From NCBI RefSeq assembly GCF_056712565.1, contig NZ_CM160072.1: 64,000 nt of DNA; one strand, 5' to 3'. Below are positions 3,590 to 53,886 of the stretch, piece by piece. The number at the start of each line of letters is the position of its first letter. Position 1 is the first letter of the stretch. The position numbers were made by a program, and so were the translations under genes. The notes beneath the pieces are model-generated. The model ran no database searches. It had not been told where the DNA came from and was given only the letters and a program-made list of their open reading frames with translations.

Positions 3590-4285
3590 TTAGACTGGCG
3601 GTAAATCGAACAGCAGGATTTCACTGTCGCTATCAGCATGGATGGAAATCGCCTGCTCATCCCAGATTGCCAGGCCATCGCTGGTCGAGGCTTTCACGCC
3701 GTTAATGGTGACATTGCCTTTCACCACCTGGATCCAGACGCGGCGTTCAGCGGCAATCTGATGCACCGACTGCTCATCTTTCACCAGCGCCCAACGATAC
3801 AGTTCCATATCCTGATGCACTTTCAATGAACCATCACGCGCATCCGGCGAAAGCACCAGTTGTTTGCCCTGCACGGCATCGAAGCGACGCTGTTCATAAC
3901 GCGGCGTAATGCCGTTTTCTTCAGGCATGATCCAGATCTGATACAGATGCAGACGCTCGGTGCTGCTTGGGTTGTACTCTGAGTGACGAATACCCGTACC
4001 CGCACTCATAATCTGGAACTCGCCCGCCGGAACCTGCTCTTTATTGCCCATGCTGTCCTGATGCTCAACAGTACCTTCCAGCACGTAGGTCAAAATTTCC
4101 ATATCTTTATGCGGGTGAGTGCCGAAGCCCTGCCCTGCTTCAATCACGTCGTCGTTAATCACGCGCAGCGCAGAGAAGCCCATAAAATTCGGATCGTAAT
4201 AGTTGGCAAAAGAGAAAGTATGCCAGGAGTCCAGCCAGCCATGATTTGCATGACCGCGTTCATTTGCTTTGCGTAAGTAGATCAT
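3590..4285 (-). CDS. yhhW: Pirin-like cupin, quercetin 2,3-dioxygenase
   Basis: 231 aa; cupin His motifs (HPHKDMEI); matches YhhW. Confidence 0.9.
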   Translation of the reverse strand: MIYLRKANERGHANHGWLDSWHTFSFANYYDPNFMGFSALRVINDDVIEAGQGFGTHPHKDMEILTYVLEGTVEHQDSMGNKEQVPAGEFQIMSAGTGIRHSEYNPSSTERLHLYQIWIMPEENGITPRYEQRRFDAVQGKQLVLSPDARDGSLKVHQDMELYRWALVKDEQSVHQIAAERRVWIQVVKGNVTINGVKASTSDGLAIWDEQAISIHADSDSEILLFDLPPV

Positions 4286-45283: not shown

Positions 45284-48087
<2,804 letters not shown>

Positions 48088-48285
48088 CACCTCCCAACGC
48101 GCCGTTATTTCCTGACGGCGCAGTAGACTTCTGCCAAATATCGACTCACGTCACATTTTGTTGATCACGATTTGGTCCCCTAAAATGTGAGACGCTTCGA
48201 TCCTCTTTTTCGCCTGTTCACCTACTATACGCTTGAAGTTGTCCATGATTGTCCATAGACAACTGTAAATGTTCAGGTGCGCGCC

Positions 48286-49032
48286 ATGAAATCATTGAGT
48301 AAGTCGTCACAAATACCGCTCTATCAACAAGCGGTGGAGTGGATAAGAGAAAGTATTTATACCGGGGATCTGGTGGAAGACGATCGCATTCCTTCGGAAT
48401 ACCAGATTATGGATATGCTGGAAGTGAGCCGGGGAACCGTTAAAAAAGCGGTCGCCCAACTGGTAAAAGAAGGCGTGTTGATACAGGTCCAGGGGAAGGG
48501 AACATTTGTCAAAAAAGAGAACGTGGCATATCCGTTAGGTGAAGGATTATTGTCATTCGCGGAATCGCTGGAAAGCCAGAAAATACATTTTACCACTGAA
48601 GTTATTACGTCACGGATTGAACCGGCTAATCGTTATGTGGCAGAGAAATTAAGAATAACGCCCGGTCAGGATATTCTTTACCTTGAGCGTTTACGTTCAA
48701 TTGGTGATGAAAAAGCGATGCTGATAGAGAACCGTATCAATATTGAGCTATGCCCCGGCATCGTGGAAATCGATTTTAATCAACACAATTTATTTCCAAC
48801 AATAGAAAGTTTGTCGCAAAGAAAAATTCGTTACTCGGAAAGTCGCTATGCCGCGCGATTAATTGGTAATGAACGCGGTCATTTTTTAGATATCAGTGAA
48901 GATGCACCCGTTTTGCATCTGGAGCAGTTAGTCTTTTTCTCCCGAGGATTACCCGTTGAGTTTGGCAACGTCTGGTTAAAAGGAAATAAATACTATCTTG
49001 GCACCGTGCTGCAACGGCGGGAAGTGAGTTAA
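48286..49032 (+). CDS. GntR/HutC-family transcriptional regulator (accessory island)
   Basis: About 248 aa; N-terminal winged HTH (YQIMDMLEVSRGTVKKAVAQLVKEGVLIQVQGKGTFV) and C-terminal UTRA-like domain. The ORF track offers a GTG at 48277. Confidence 0.75.
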   Translation: MKSLSKSSQIPLYQQAVEWIRESIYTGDLVEDDRIPSEYQIMDMLEVSRGTVKKAVAQLVKEGVLIQVQGKGTFVKKENVAYPLGEGLLSFAESLESQKIHFTTEVITSRIEPANRYVAEKLRITPGQDILYLERLRSIGDEKAMLIENRINIELCPGIVEIDFNQHNLFPTIESLSQRKIRYSESRYAARLIGNERGHFLDISEDAPVLHLEQLVFFSRGLPVEFGNVWLKGNKYYLGTVLQRREVS

Positions 49033-49056: not shown

Positions 49057-49530
49057 ATGCAAGGCATACAGTTTCAGGAAAATTTTATTCAACGACTTCC
49101 GGCAGGGTTAAGCGTTGAACAGATCATCCATCAGTTAGCGCAACCGTTGGTTACCGCCGAACTGGTGGTCCCTGATTTTGCCGATCATGTACTGGAACGT
49201 GAGGCGACGTACCCAACGGGACTGCCTACCGAACCACCGTGTGTCGCCATTCCGCACACGGACCATAAACATGTCAGGCACAATGCAATTGCCGTCGGTA
49301 TCCTGCCGGAACCGGTAGTGTTTGCCGATATGGGCGGCGACTCTGATCCCGTACCTGTCAGGGTGATTTTTTTGCTCGCCTTAGGCGAAAGTAATAAACA
49401 ATTAAATGCCCTGGGCTGGATTATGGAGATGATTCAGGATACGCCCTTTATGCGCGCCCTGCTTACGATGGAAACAACAGAAATACACACAGCAATCTTA
49501 AACAAAATGAAAGAACGAGGTGAAATATGA
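49057..49530 (+). CDS. PTS EIIA component, fructose/mannitol/galactitol/ascorbate-type (PTS_EIIA_2)
   Basis: 157 aa; size and position immediately before EIIB and EIIC fit a GatA/UlaC-like IIA. Confidence 0.65.
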   Translation: MQGIQFQENFIQRLPAGLSVEQIIHQLAQPLVTAELVVPDFADHVLEREATYPTGLPTEPPCVAIPHTDHKHVRHNAIAVGILPEPVVFADMGGDSDPVPVRVIFLLALGESNKQLNALGWIMEMIQDTPFMRALLTMETTEIHTAILNKMKERGEI

Positions 49531-49808
49531 GTCAAACCATTTTATTTGTCTGCGCCACGGGTATTGCCACATCCACGGCAGTAACAGAAAAAGTCATGGA
49601 ATATTGTAAAGAGCACGGTCTTAACGTCAATTATTCCCAAACCAACGTTGCCTCTTTACCTGGAAATACTGACGGCGTAGCACTGGTAGTCTCAACGACT
49701 AAAGTGCCTTATGAACTCGACGTCCCGGTGGTTAACGGCTTGCCGATTATTACCGGTATTGGCGAAGAGAAAGTACTGGCGCAAATTGTTTCGATCCTTA
49801 AAAAGTAA
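49527..49808 (+). CDS. PTS EIIB component, GatB/UlaB-like
   Basis: 93 aa; N-terminal phospho-cysteine motif ILFVCATGIATS (Cys about position 9); ATGA overlap with the IIA gene. Confidence 0.75.
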   Translation: MSQTILFVCATGIATSTAVTEKVMEYCKEHGLNVNYSQTNVASLPGNTDGVALVVSTTKVPYELDVPVVNGLPIITGIGEEKVLAQIVSILKK

Positions 49809-49884
49809 TTAATAATAATTAATTTCAACCCACTCCATCAGGCGCTAACGCGAGGTGCGCTCTCGCCTGAAAAAGAGGTTTATT

Positions 49885-51243
49885 ATGAACGATATCGCGC
49901 ATACCCTCTATAATATTGTGCAATATATATTGGGATTTGGTCCCACGGTAATGTTGCCGTTGGTGTTATTTATTCTTGCTCTCTTTTTTAAAGTAAAACC
50001 CGCTAAAGCCTTACGTTCGTCATTAACGGTCGGCATTGGTTTTGTCGGTATTTATGCCATTTTCGATATTCTTACCAGCAATGTCGGGCCAGCGGCCCAG
50101 GCGATGGTTGAACGCACCGGAATTAATTTACCGGTGGTGGATTTAGGCTGGCCGCCGCTTTCCGCTATTACATGGGGTTCGCCAATTGCCCCGTTTGTTA
50201 TTCCCCTGACTATTCTGATTAACGTGGCGATGCTGGCGTTAAATAAAACCCGCACCGTTGACGTAGATATGTGGAACTACTGGCATTTTGCCCTTGCCGG
50301 TACGCTGGTTTATTACAGCACCGGCAGCCTGTTCTTTGGTTTGCTGGCAGCGGCGATTGCTGCGGTGGTAGTACTTAAACTCGCCGACTGGTCTGCGCCA
50401 CTGGTACAAAAATACTTTGGCCTGGAAGGGATCTCTTTGCCGACGCTCTCTTCGGTGGTGTTCTTTCCGGTCGGTCTGTTGGTCGACAAAATCATCGACC
50501 ATATCCCCGGCCTCAATCGTATTCATATCGATCCGGAAACCGTACAGAAAAAGTTTGGCATATTCGGCGAACCGATGATGGTTGGTACTATTCTGGGCAT
50601 TCTGCTCGGCGTAATTGCCGGATACGATTTCAAAAAAGTCTTGCTGCTTGGCATCAGCATTGGCGGTGTGATGTTCATCCTGCCACGCATGGTTCGCATT
50701 CTGATGGAAGGTTTATTACCGCTGTCTGAAGCCATTAAAAAGTATCTCAATGCCAAATACCCTGACCGTGACGATCTCTATATCGGCCTGGATATCGCCG
50801 TTGCCGTAGGTAACCCGGCGATTATCTCCACCGCCCTGCTGCTGACGCCAATCTCGGTCTTTATCGCGTTTGTCCTTCCGGGTAATGAAGTCCTGCCGCT
50901 TGGGGACCTTGCCAACCTGGCGGTAATGGCGTCGATGATTGCTTTAGCCAGCCGTGGCAACATTTTCCGCACCGTTCTGGCGGCGATTCCGGTGATTATT
51001 GCCGATCTGTGGATTGCGACTAAAATCGCGCCGTTTATTACCGGAATGGCGAAAGACGTTAATTTCAAATTTGCCGAAGGCTCCAGCGGCCAGGTCTCCA
51101 GTTTCCTTGATGGCGGTAACCCGTTCCGCTTCTGGCTGCTGGAAATCTTCAACGGCAATCTCATCGCCATTGGTCTGGTGCCGGTTATCGCCCTGGTACT
51201 GTATGGTATTTTCCGAATGACGCGGAGCACGGTTTATGCCTGA
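49885..51243 (+). CDS. PTS EIIC permease, galactitol/ascorbate-type
   Basis: About 452-aa polytopic membrane protein; ATG at 49885 preceded by RBS AAGAGG. The ORF track start at 49855 is an extension. Confidence 0.75.
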   Translation: MNDIAHTLYNIVQYILGFGPTVMLPLVLFILALFFKVKPAKALRSSLTVGIGFVGIYAIFDILTSNVGPAAQAMVERTGINLPVVDLGWPPLSAITWGSPIAPFVIPLTILINVAMLALNKTRTVDVDMWNYWHFALAGTLVYYSTGSLFFGLLAAAIAAVVVLKLADWSAPLVQKYFGLEGISLPTLSSVVFFPVGLLVDKIIDHIPGLNRIHIDPETVQKKFGIFGEPMMVGTILGILLGVIAGYDFKKVLLLGISIGGVMFILPRMVRILMEGLLPLSEAIKKYLNAKYPDRDDLYIGLDIAVAVGNPAIISTALLLTPISVFIAFVLPGNEVLPLGDLANLAVMASMIALASRGNIFRTVLAAIPVIIADLWIATKIAPFITGMAKDVNFKFAEGSSGQVSSFLDGGNPFRFWLLEIFNGNLIAIGLVPVIALVLYGIFRMTRSTVYA

Positions 51244-52744
51244 TAACAGCGCAGCTATCGTTATCGATATTGGCACCACCAATTGCAAAGTCACCTGCTT
51301 TTCCTGCCTGGACGCAACGACGTTGGGCGCGCATAAATTCGTGACGGCAAAACAGATCTCCCCACAGGGCAATGTCGATTTCGATATCGACGCCCTCTGG
51401 CAGGAGGTCCGCCAGGCGATAGCGCAACTGAACGCCGCTTCGCCGCTGCCAGTCAGGCGGATCAGCATTGCCAGTTTTGGCGAGTCAGGGGTGTTTCTTG
51501 ACAAACATGGCGAGATTCTGACGCCAATGCTGGCATGGTATGACCGTCGCGGTGAAGAGTATCTGGCAACGCTTAGCGAGGCAGACAGTGCGGCACTTTA
51601 TGACATTTGCGGGTTACCACTGCACAGCAATTACTCTGCCTTCAAAATGCGTTGGTTGCTGGAGCATTATCCGCTGCGCAATCGTCGCGGCCTGCGCTGG
51701 CTACATGCACCGGAAGTGCTGCTCTGGCGGCTGACTGGCGAACAGCGAACGGATATCACCTTAGCCAGCCGTACACTGTGTCTGGACGTGCGCAAAGGCG
51801 AATGGTCAGCGAAAGCGGCGGCGTTGTTACACGTTCCCTGTTCAGCATTTGCGCCATTGTTGCAGCCAGGTGAGCACGCCGGATGGGTCAGTGAGTCGCT
51901 CTGCAAAACGCTTGGGTTCTCGCAATCGGTCAGCGTGACGCTGGCCGGACATGACCATATGGTGGGTGCGCGGGCGTTGCAGATGATGCCGGGCGATATC
52001 CTTAACTCGACGGGCACCACGGAAGGCATTCTGCAACTGGATACACAACCGACGCTGGATGAACAGGCCAAACGTGACAAGCTGGCAAACGGCTGTTACT
52101 CGCTTGCCAACCAGTTCACCCTGTTTGCTTCTCTGCCCGTGGGCGGTTTCGCGCTGGAGTGGCTGCGTAACACGTTCCGGCTAACCGATGAGGAGATCGC
52201 CGTGTCGCTCAATCGTGGGTATGCGGATTACCTGGCGGGGAACTGGTCGCTCGATGACATTCCCGTTTTTATTCCGCATCTTCGCGGTTCGGGTTCGCCC
52301 TATAAAAATCGCCATACCCGAGGATTATTTTATGGGCTTGGCGATACGTTAAATATCGATATGTTAATTGCCAGCGTCTCACTGGGATTAACCATGGAAT
52401 TTGCCAACTGCTTCGCCTGTTTTAATGTGCCCGGCACCAGCGCGTTAAAAGTGATAGGTCCGGCAACCCATAATCCCCTTTGGCTGCAATTAAAGGCGGA
52501 TATTTTACAGCGTCCGGTTGAAGCAATTGCATTTAACGAGGCGGTTTCTGTCGGAGCATTATTAACCGCCGCACCGGATATTCCACCGCCGCAAGTCACC
52601 ATAGCCCAACGTTTGTTACCGAATCGGGCGAGATACCATCAATTACAGCGTTATCAGCACAAATGGAAAAGCTGGTATCAGTTGAAATTACAGCAAGAAG
52701 GCGTGATGCCATTACATCATCGGGAGGAGCACTATGTTGAGTAA
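51236..52744 (+). CDS. FGGY-family carbohydrate kinase
   Basis: 502 aa; N-terminal FGGY motif AIVIDIGTTNCKV; 8-bp overlap with the IIC gene. Confidence 0.75.
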   Translation: MPDNSAAIVIDIGTTNCKVTCFSCLDATTLGAHKFVTAKQISPQGNVDFDIDALWQEVRQAIAQLNAASPLPVRRISIASFGESGVFLDKHGEILTPMLAWYDRRGEEYLATLSEADSAALYDICGLPLHSNYSAFKMRWLLEHYPLRNRRGLRWLHAPEVLLWRLTGEQRTDITLASRTLCLDVRKGEWSAKAAALLHVPCSAFAPLLQPGEHAGWVSESLCKTLGFSQSVSVTLAGHDHMVGARALQMMPGDILNSTGTTEGILQLDTQPTLDEQAKRDKLANGCYSLANQFTLFASLPVGGFALEWLRNTFRLTDEEIAVSLNRGYADYLAGNWSLDDIPVFIPHLRGSGSPYKNRHTRGLFYGLGDTLNIDMLIASVSLGLTMEFANCFACFNVPGTSALKVIGPATHNPLWLQLKADILQRPVEAIAFNEAVSVGALLTAAPDIPPPQVTIAQRLLPNRARYHQLQRYQHKWKSWYQLKLQQEGVMPLHHREEHYVE

Positions 52745-53003
52745 AACCGTGGAAGTCAGAAACAGTACTGGCCTGCATGCACGTCCGGCGGCCTGTCTGG
52801 CGAAAGCCGCCAAAAAATATAGCTGTAAAGTGACGCTGCACTATGAAGGTAATGATATTAATGCCACCAGCATGATGAATATTATGCGCGCCGGAATAAA
52901 AGGCGGAAAAACGGTGGAAATACGCTGCGAAGGTGATGATGAAAACGAGGCAATACAAACTCTCACTACCTTATTTCGCGACCGCTTCGGTGAAGCTGAA
53001 TAA
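52734..53003 (+). CDS. HPr-family phosphocarrier protein paralogue
   Basis: 89 aa; active-site motif GLHARPA (His-15 equivalent) and a Ser-46-like region (ATSMMNIM). Confidence 0.8.
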   Translation: MLSKTVEVRNSTGLHARPAACLAKAAKKYSCKVTLHYEGNDINATSMMNIMRAGIKGGKTVEIRCEGDDENEAIQTLTTLFRDRFGEAE

Positions 53004-53034
53004 TTAACTGATATTAAAAGATGAGGTTTTCAAT

Positions 53035-53886
53035 ATGCCATTAGTTAATGGACGGATACTGCTCGACCGCATTCAGGAAAAACGGGTATTAGCGGGCGCA
53101 TTTAATACCACCAATCTGGAGACAACGATTTCAATTTTAAACGCCATTGAGCGTTCAGGATTACCCAACTTCATTCAGATTGCGCCCACCAATGCACAAC
53201 TGTCGGGATACGATTACATTTATGAAATCGTGAAACGTCACGCTGATAAAATGGATGTTCCGGTCAGTCTTCATCTTGATCACGGGAAAACTCAGGAGGA
53301 TGTTAAACAGGCGGTGCGCGCGGGCTTTACCTCGGTCATGATTGACGGTGCCGCATTCTCTTTTGAAGAGAATATCGCTTTCACCCAGGAAGCTGTCGAT
53401 TTCTGTAAATCCTATGGCGTACCGGTTGAAGCGGAGCTGGGGGCGATTCTCGGCAAAGAAGACGATCACGTCAGCGAAGCCGATTGCAAAACGGAACCGG
53501 AAAAGGTGAAGACCTTTGTCGAACGCACCGGTTGCGACATGCTGGCAGTTTCTATTGGTAACGTTCATGGCCTGGACGATATACCGCGGATCGATATCCC
53601 CCTGCTGAAGCGCATTGCCGAAGTCAGCCCGGTGCCGCTGGTTATTCACGGCGGCTCCGGTATCGCCCCGGAGATATTACGCAGTTTCGTTAATTATCGC
53701 GTCGCTAAAGTGAATATCGCCAGCGATCTGCGCAAAGCGTTTATCACCGCAGTCGGCAAAGCGTATGTGAATAATCACAACGAGGCGAATCTGGCACGGG
53801 TGATGGCATCAGCAAAAAACGCCGTCGAGGAAGATGTGTATAGCAAAATCCTGATGATGAATGAGGGGCATCGGTTGGGTAAGTAA
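53035..53886 (+). CDS. Class II (metal-dependent) ketose-bisphosphate aldolase, GatY/KbaY/FbaA family
   Basis: 283 aa; motifs LHLDHG, VIHGGSG and overall resemblance to tagatose-1,6-bisphosphate aldolases. Confidence 0.8.
   Translation: MPLVNGRILLDRIQEKRVLAGAFNTTNLETTISILNAIERSGLPNFIQIAPTNAQLSGYDYIYEIVKRHADKMDVPVSLHLDHGKTQEDVKQAVRAGFTSVMIDGAAFSFEENIAFTQEAVDFCKSYGVPVEAELGAILGKEDDHVSEADCKTEPEKVKTFVERTGCDMLAVSIGNVHGLDDIPRIDIPLLKRIAEVSPVPLVIHGGSGIAPEILRSFVNYRVAKVNIASDLRKAFITAVGKAYVNNHNEANLARVMASAKNAVEEDVYSKILMMNEGHRLGK

Follow-up and report, generated by a model that had tools for sequence, protein, structure and literature searches.

HutC-subfamily regulators have mostly been described on sites of the form GT-N4-AC (PMC4494728), of which the TreR box TTGTATATACAA is an example (PMC11356801). 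For NagR, the half-sites lie at positions -7 to -4 with six nucleotides between them, G-4 is read by Arg48, G-5 by Arg38, and the minor groove by Gly69 (PMC4333415). Close to many palindromes of the GntR family there is also an additional, weaker box (Suvorova et al. 2015, PMC4494728). Here we describe a 28-bp element of E. coli, at 48237-48264, that is an uncharacterised member of this well-known kind of gene switch. Its repeated motif, TTGTCCAT, is very probably the DNA docking site of the neighbouring regulator, as judged from sequence comparison, and the three-box site that contains it is likely the means by which that regulator switches off its own seven-gene operon for sugar uptake.

The window, a stretch of 64,000 nucleotides (64 kb) of contig NZ_CM160072.1 (RefSeq assembly GCF_056712565.1) that is 100% identical to the E. 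coli type strain ATCC 11775, carries an accessory island of seven same-strand genes, opened by the regulator gene and closed at the convergent gene yhhJ. The candidate operator is housed in the 198-bp intergenic gap between nikR (47686-48087) and the regulator gene (48286-49032, plus strand), which is annotated in RefSeq as a GntR family regulator and encodes a protein of 248 aa belonging to the GntR/HutC subfamily. The start codon, ATG at 48286, agrees with the RefSeq annotation and is preceded by a Shine-Dalgarno sequence, AGGTG (48275-48279, plus strand), 6 nt ahead of it, which is kept in the closest orthologues (group 1, defined below); an in-frame GTG at 48277 is not conserved (locus L087). 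After a gap of 24 bp follow the putative regulated structural genes (49057-53886, plus strand), which by NCBIfam matches and RefSeq annotation encode PTS components IIA, IIB and IIC of the galactitol (Gat) family, an FGGY kinase, an HPr paralogue and a class II aldolase. Neither kinase nor transporter reaches a named NCBIfam equivalog, and the only model that the aldolase satisfies is the unnamed "class II aldolase".

Among 5426 complete E. coli genomes, 1637 (~30%) carry the island, invariably on the chromosome, and the carriers include O157:H7 strains as well as the type strain. Its left boundary is probably near 48136, ~50 bp past the nikR stop codon, where homology to the islands of other genera starts abruptly; nikR itself stands upstream of the island only in Escherichia and Citrobacter loci. 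Directly past nikR, a perfect 7-bp stem (GCGCCGT-N9-ACGGCGC, 48099-48121) without a T-run may be a weak nikR terminator. At the other end of the island, O157:H7 has a hicAB toxin-antitoxin pair (12858-13489 of locus L002) between the aldolase gene and yhhJ, which the window strain is without.

The regulator combines a GntR winged helix-turn-helix domain (PF00392, residues 12-75, 56.8 bits against a cut-off of 27) with a UTRA effector domain of the chorismate-lyase fold (PF07702, residues 98-236, 95.9 bits against a cut-off of 23.8). Residues 79-248 are ~98% identical, with three substitutions (E = 7e-108), to PDB 3HFI, an unannotated structural-genomics entry titled "putative regulator". When the protein was compared with the named HutC equivalogs of NCBIfam (PhnF, TreR, HutC, MngR and LSA1692 type), the best scores were 118, 117 and 101 bits, against cut-offs of 275, 157 and 212 bits, respectively. 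All of these scores fall below the cut-offs, and the regulator belongs to an unnamed orthologous group.

A preliminary description of this DNA had pointed to tandem TTGTCCAT motifs and an imperfect palindrome at 48239-48262, 25-45 bp upstream of the regulator start. The segment reads TTGTCCATGATTGTCCATAGACAA, exactly as first described: TTGTCCAT occurs twice, at 48239 and 48249, 10 bp apart, and the palindrome TTGTC-CATA-GACAA occupies 48249-48262, where it can also be read as 7+7 arms (TTGTCCA and TAGACAA) with 6 of 7 positions matching. Measured from the ATG at 48286 the motif spans -47 to -24, close to the distance then given. The segment is real but falls short of the full unit, which is a composite candidate operator of 28 bp with three boxes, AGTTGTCCAT-GATTGTCCAT-AGACAACT, at 48237-48264. 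These are framed by a larger inverted repeat of 11 nt, AGTTGTCCATG/CATAGACAACT, at 48237-48247 and 48254-48264, the two arms of which are 91% complementary.

Box 1 (AGTTGTCCAT, 48237-48246, plus strand, with its TTGTCCAT core at 48239-48246) is in direct orientation and scores 15.1 bits with the unit PWM. Box 2 (GATTGTCCAT, 48247-48256, plus strand, core 48249-48256) is the left arm of the inner dyad, at 12.8 bits, and box 3 (48255-48264, AGTTGTCTAT on the minus strand and ATAGACAACT on the plus strand) is the right arm, at 15.4 bits. Together, boxes 2 and 3 form TTGTCCATAGACAA at 48249-48262, a dyad of the form TTGT-N6-ACAA. A fourth box, AAATGTTCAG at 48267-48276, was considered and dropped because it scores <8 bits and is missing outside group 1.

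The element shares two features with the canonical HutC operator (NyGT(M)TA(K)ACNy), namely a palindrome built on GT...AC and a location in a promoter region that is conserved among orthologues. To this extent the earlier likening of the dyad to HutC sites is borne out, but the spacing differs: GT and AC are 6 nt apart (GT-CCATAG-AC) in all orthologues, rather than the canonical 4 nt with a central TA. A search for a canonical GT-N4-AC dyad hidden inside the 28-mer found none that is conserved. The element also contains the at least two direct repeats of ~7-10 bp that mark operators of the FarR/MngR and NagQ type, and relatives have 3-5 phased direct boxes. Operators of that type are described as free of dyad symmetry, whereas here a strong dyad was found.

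Taken alone, the sequence is weakly above chance. TTGTCCAT has 5 occurrences in the window against 2.3 expected, the dyad pattern has 3 against 2.1 expected, and exact 8-mers repeated in tandem at 9-12 bp spacing number 18. The window has a single instance of tandem repeat and dyad together, 1 of 20 shuffles of it has the combination as well, and the three-box cluster is the sole triple cluster in the window. As each piece alone is near chance, the significance of the element rests on conservation and not on the single sequence.

Homologues of the regulator were collected, a graded set was aligned, and 80 genomic loci were fetched. In group 1 (83-100% identity, about 20 genera), the regulator comes first in the order regulator-IIA-IIB-IIC-kinase-(HPr)-aldolase. 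In group 2 (65-71% identity; Klebsiella, Raoultella, Erwinia, Yersinia and Serratia) the pathway is split into IIA-IIB-IIC-kinase-dehydrogenase and regulator-aldolase-HPr, and in Gilliamella, Enterococcus and lactobacilli the order is regulator-aldolase-IIA-IIB-IIC-kinase. Synteny between the regulator and the structural genes is kept from Enterobacterales to Enterococcus. Negative controls were 24 loci of Collinsella paralogues (~42% identity, no synteny).

Of 36 enterobacterial orthologue loci, drawn from about 25 genera, 35 have, 47-51 nt ahead of the start codon, a 28-mer of the form NNyTGTnCATnnTyGTnnnnnGAnnAnn, whose commonest group-1 forms are AGTTGTACATGATTGTC(C/T)ATAGACAACT. Its invariant columns read TTGT.CAT..T(T)GT..A.(A)GA..A. 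Box 1 is TTGTnCAT in all 35 site-bearing enterobacterial orthologue sites, and no columns of the 28-mer profile are more informative than those of its core. Box 2 follows box 1 at the same 10-bp spacing in all orthologues, and at the position of boxes 2 and 3 a perfect palindrome, TTGTCTATAGACAA, is present in L006, L007, L008, L017, L020 and L087. One syntenic orthologue locus, that of Pantoea sp. BAV 3049 (L022, 71% identity), has no recognisable boxes upstream (3850-4000), which may reflect a loss of regulation or a rearrangement of the region.

In Gilliamella, Enterococcus and Selenomonas the same box forms 10-bp-phased arrays. Across the syntenic loci L003-L053, 47 of 51 have 2-5 boxes in the final 150 nt, at intervals that are multiples of 10 bp, against a background rate of 0.88 boxes per kb, and such boxes stand beside none of the 24 non-syntenic paralogues. 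With a PWM of the 28-mer built from 18 distinct sites, the window site scores 40.0 bits and the runner-up in the 64-kb window 16.4 bits. All matches of at least 14 bits in the 742 kb of fetched loci lie just upstream of a regulator or PTS IIA gene, compared with 1 match in three shuffled copies. Sites outside the training set stand ahead of the regulator in Gilliamella, Enterococcus and Selenomonas (27-33 bits), and ahead of PTS IIA in Klebsiella (GGTTGAACATAGTTGTACATAGACAAGT at L083:4907, 30.2 bits), Erwinia (L085:1898, 34.6 bits) and Yersinia (L086:1902, 36.7 bits).

Three expectations voiced at the outset can be judged from these data. The dyad, whose conservation in orthologous islands had been set as a check, is strongly conserved (35 of the 36 enterobacterial loci). 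Similar sites had been anticipated ahead of the PTS genes; in E. coli there is no second site, either there or elsewhere in the 64-kb window, which has only isolated single boxes at the background rate, but relatives in Klebsiella, Erwinia and Yersinia, whose PTS genes are set apart in an operon of their own upstream, do have a second copy. The autoregulation that had been suggested is still a prediction, and follows from the regulator being the first gene of its operon. In the same three group-2 loci (L083, L085 and L086), the cluster has one or two genes for Zn-dependent alcohol dehydrogenases, and that of L085 also has a SurE-like gene. The dehydrogenases suggest a polyol-phosphate route or polyol variant in group 2; because the E. 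coli island is without such genes, its substrate is more likely a ketose.

Column conservation across 17 genera is 0.94-0.98 over 48236-48265, compared with 0.37-0.41 before 48136 and 0.75-0.93 in coding sequence. The group-1 leader is equally conserved all the way to the ATG, so that the boxes do not stand out by conservation inside group 1 alone. In E. coli, 1626 of the 1637 island-carrying genomes have identical copies of the 70 nt at 48221-48290, whereas the neighbouring 70 nt at 48136-48205 are identical in only 129 of those genomes and detectable in 894. In the 200 nt that precede the start codon, O157 and the window have nine differences, all of them at or before 48215. Strain ESDR8 (L089), one of 11 rare variants, has a 1-nt deletion at 48233, between the probable -10 hexamer and box 1, and its boxes are intact.

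The DNA-binding domain of the regulator aligns to that of NagR without gaps. Its recognition helix (VSRGTVKKA) and wing (QGKGTFV) are conserved in all groups, which matches the conserved TTGT core, and the equivalents of NagR Arg48 and Gly69 are retained as Arg49 and Gly70. The position of NagR Arg38 is taken by Tyr39 in Escherichia, by Phe in most other group-1 loci, and by Asn in group 2, Gilliamella, Enterococcus and Selenomonas. With Tyr39 in place of Arg38, the NagR contact model is not directly transferable. The variable base that follows TTGT does not change consistently with the identity of residue 39 (Tyr, Phe or Asn): L017, for instance, combines Tyr with TTGTACAT, and L037 combines Phe with TTGTCCAT.

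A simple sigma-70 scan called no promoter in 48088-48285, so that the promoter model rests on conservation. The probable -10 hexamer is TACTAT (48223-48228, plus strand), since TAnnAT is kept at the same alignment position in most group-1 orthologues. It ends 8 nt ahead of box 1 and would place the transcription start near 48235. A usable -35 hexamer is missing (ATCCTC at 48200-48205). Two CRP-like sites, to which we assign a putative function in activation of this promoter, lie further upstream. The proximal one, AAATGTGAGACGCTTCGATCCT (48183-48204), reads TGTGA-N6-TCGAT with 7/10 core matches, and its centre at 48193.5 is 29.5 bp before the predicted -10, a spacing consistent with class II CRP geometry. 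Its TGTGA half is invariant in group 1, and the right half is weak in E. coli; equivalent sites with 8-9/10 matches stand 41-43 bp ahead of the operator in L007, L014 and group 2, and the CRP-like sites of Gilliamella have 10/10 matches. The distal one, AATATCGACTCACGTCACATTT (48137-48158, centre 48147.5), has 7/10 matches in E. coli, where its left half has decayed to ATCGA; in 15 other genomes it is a near-perfect TGTGA-N6-TCACA with 8-10/10 matches, centred 88-90 bp before the operator start.

An inverted repeat at 48140-48159 and 48182-48201 consists of the two CRP-like sites facing each other. Between them, at 48162-48179, is a conserved element common to group-1 orthologues, in which TGATC is followed by GGTC or GAAC (TGATCACGATTTGGTCCC).

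In Enterococcus canintestini, E. avium and Selenomonas, complete promoters with 10/12 matches end 3-4 nt ahead of the first box. In every lineage with a readable promoter the boxes thus stand just past the -10 and would cover the transcription start, which is the position of a repressor. The arrays of the Enterococcus avium group (L041 and L043-L047) are ~80 bp long and ~100 nt ahead of the regulator; strong CTTGTACA boxes recur every 20 bp with weaker ones between them, starting 3 nt past a TACAAT -10. A palindrome, CACAGAGGTACCCTGTG, is common to L054, L056 and L057 (Sporolactobacillus, Pediococcus and Lacticaseibacillus), ~60-90 nt before the regulator start, and lies upstream of TTGT boxes with which it is 10-bp-phased.

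The 28-bp element at 48237-48264 probably serves the adjacent GntR/HutC regulator as its operator, and the regulator would repress its operon by occlusion. A regulator dimer would sit on the dyad of boxes 2 and 3, and the upstream direct box 1 would be an accessory half-site, occupied by either another DNA-binding domain or another dimer. Because the site begins ~8 nt past the conserved -10 of a probably CRP-dependent promoter, the bound protein would cover both the transcription start and the early transcribed region. Such occlusion would block the whole operon, that is, the regulator itself, PTS IIA, IIB and IIC, the FGGY kinase, HPr and the class II aldolase. Release of the repressor presumably follows when a phosphorylated sugar, formed by the PTS, binds its UTRA domain.

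A set of three boxes is not easily reconciled with binding by dimers. Tentatively, one winged helix might instead occupy each TTGTnnAT box and, with the boxes on one face of the DNA at 10-bp intervals, a chain of dimers might assemble cooperatively from the -10 to the ribosome-binding site, in a non-canonical mode of HutC recognition. Box number and orientation vary, from three boxes in E. coli to up to eight in the Enterococcus avium group; the half-site G lies 1 bp further out, and Tyr, Phe or Asn stands in place of the second arginine of the family (NagR Arg38).

The same protein on the same site might also activate the operon, or both repress and activate it. Without a usable -35 the E. 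coli promoter does need some activator, but the positions for one are already taken by the CRP-like sites. Moreover, the -10 precedes the site in E. coli and also in three Firmicute loci, the latter with complete 10/12 promoters that need no activator, and the characterised HutC regulators NagR and TreR are repressors (PMC4333415, PMC11356801). We therefore regard activation as unlikely and repression by occlusion as the preferred reading.

Repression by the neighbouring regulator presupposes that this protein, rather than a different transcription factor, binds the boxes. The pairing of protein and DNA is predicted, and the GT-N6-AC spacing is atypical of the HutC subfamily, both of which would suit a foreign factor, with the regulator binding elsewhere. 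Such a factor is decidedly unlikely, however, because the boxes travel with the regulator gene across Proteobacteria, Bacillota and Negativicutes, in differing flanking contexts, and are absent beside paralogues. They also mark a second operon of the same pathway, and the motif is unlike the CRP consensus. We know of no global regulator common to all these hosts.

A role for the outer inverted repeat at the RNA level, as a hairpin of the 5' leader with effects on stability, translation or attenuation, instead of as a DNA site, is very unlikely. The E. coli 28-mer folds at -9.5 kcal/mol (z = -4.7) and would be transcribed if the start is near 48235, but the sites of group 2, the PTS operons, Gilliamella and Enterococcus have z values of -1.5 to +0.5 and differing folds while the boxes persist, and arrays of direct repeats only cannot form the stem. 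There is also no Rfam match in 48050-48350. As the fold is not conserved where the boxes are, we reject this reading. A chance repeat or a scar of island insertion without function, for which the 1 in 20 window shuffles with both tandem repeat and dyad could be cited, is effectively refuted by all of the cross-phylum conservation, and the island's homology boundary, near 48136, is ~100 bp away on the upstream side.

The preferred reading, an operator of the adjacent regulator, concerns an ordinary kind of bacterial gene switch and leaves the general picture of such regulators unchanged. It does supply a defined candidate switch for an accessory carbohydrate island, and we found no publication on the operon, its regulator or PDB 3HFI. 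Together with the solved effector domain in 3HFI, the candidate operator is a handle towards the inducer, and hence the sugar. It is also a natural HutC-type example of TTGT-N6-ACAA with a phased direct box, conserved across phyla, and as such a data point for the rules of GntR recognition.

Compared with described systems, NagR (YvoA) of Bacillus subtilis on its dre site (PDB 4WWC; PMC4333415) is likewise a repressor with GntR winged-helix and UTRA domains and a palindromic operator. It controls a PTS sugar operon, as predicted here, and its effector is a sugar-phosphate. Both operators have 4-nt half-sites (-7 to -4 and +4 to +7) separated by a 6-nt gap, GTGG-N6-CCAC in NagR and TTGT-N6-ACAA here. 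The conserved G is at -5 here and not at -4, making the core GT-N6-AC instead of GT-N4-AC; an extra direct box lies 10 bp upstream; and the N-terminal regions of the two proteins are of low identity (about 54 bits). The Bacillus TreR boxes, TTGTATATACAA and ATGTATATACAA (PMC11356801), have the same TTGT and ACAA arms as the element described here, and two of them stand in the promoter of a PTS sugar operon whose genes include that of the HutC-type repressor. They have 4 central bp rather than 6, and form two separate palindromes in place of a direct box followed by a palindrome.

Neither these box sequences nor the orthologous group were found in the supplement of a survey of GntR motifs (PMC4494728). 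The SdhR site of that survey is similarly composite, a palindrome with added internal repeats (PMC4494728). Unlike the weaker accessory boxes of the GntR family, the accessory box here equals the dyad arms in strength and conservation (15.1 bits versus 12.8 and 15.4 bits). FarR/MngR of E. coli is also a HutC-subfamily regulator of a PTS operon, and its sites are cited in the survey as 10-bp direct repeats, TGTATTAWTT, with a TGT core; with SdhR, it is among the known departures of the subfamily from GT-N4-AC (PMC4494728). These repeats resemble boxes 1 and 2 of the present element and the 3-8-box arrays of Gilliamella and Enterococcus. The FarR sites are described without a dyad, whereas here the last two boxes form a strong palindrome (PMC4494728).
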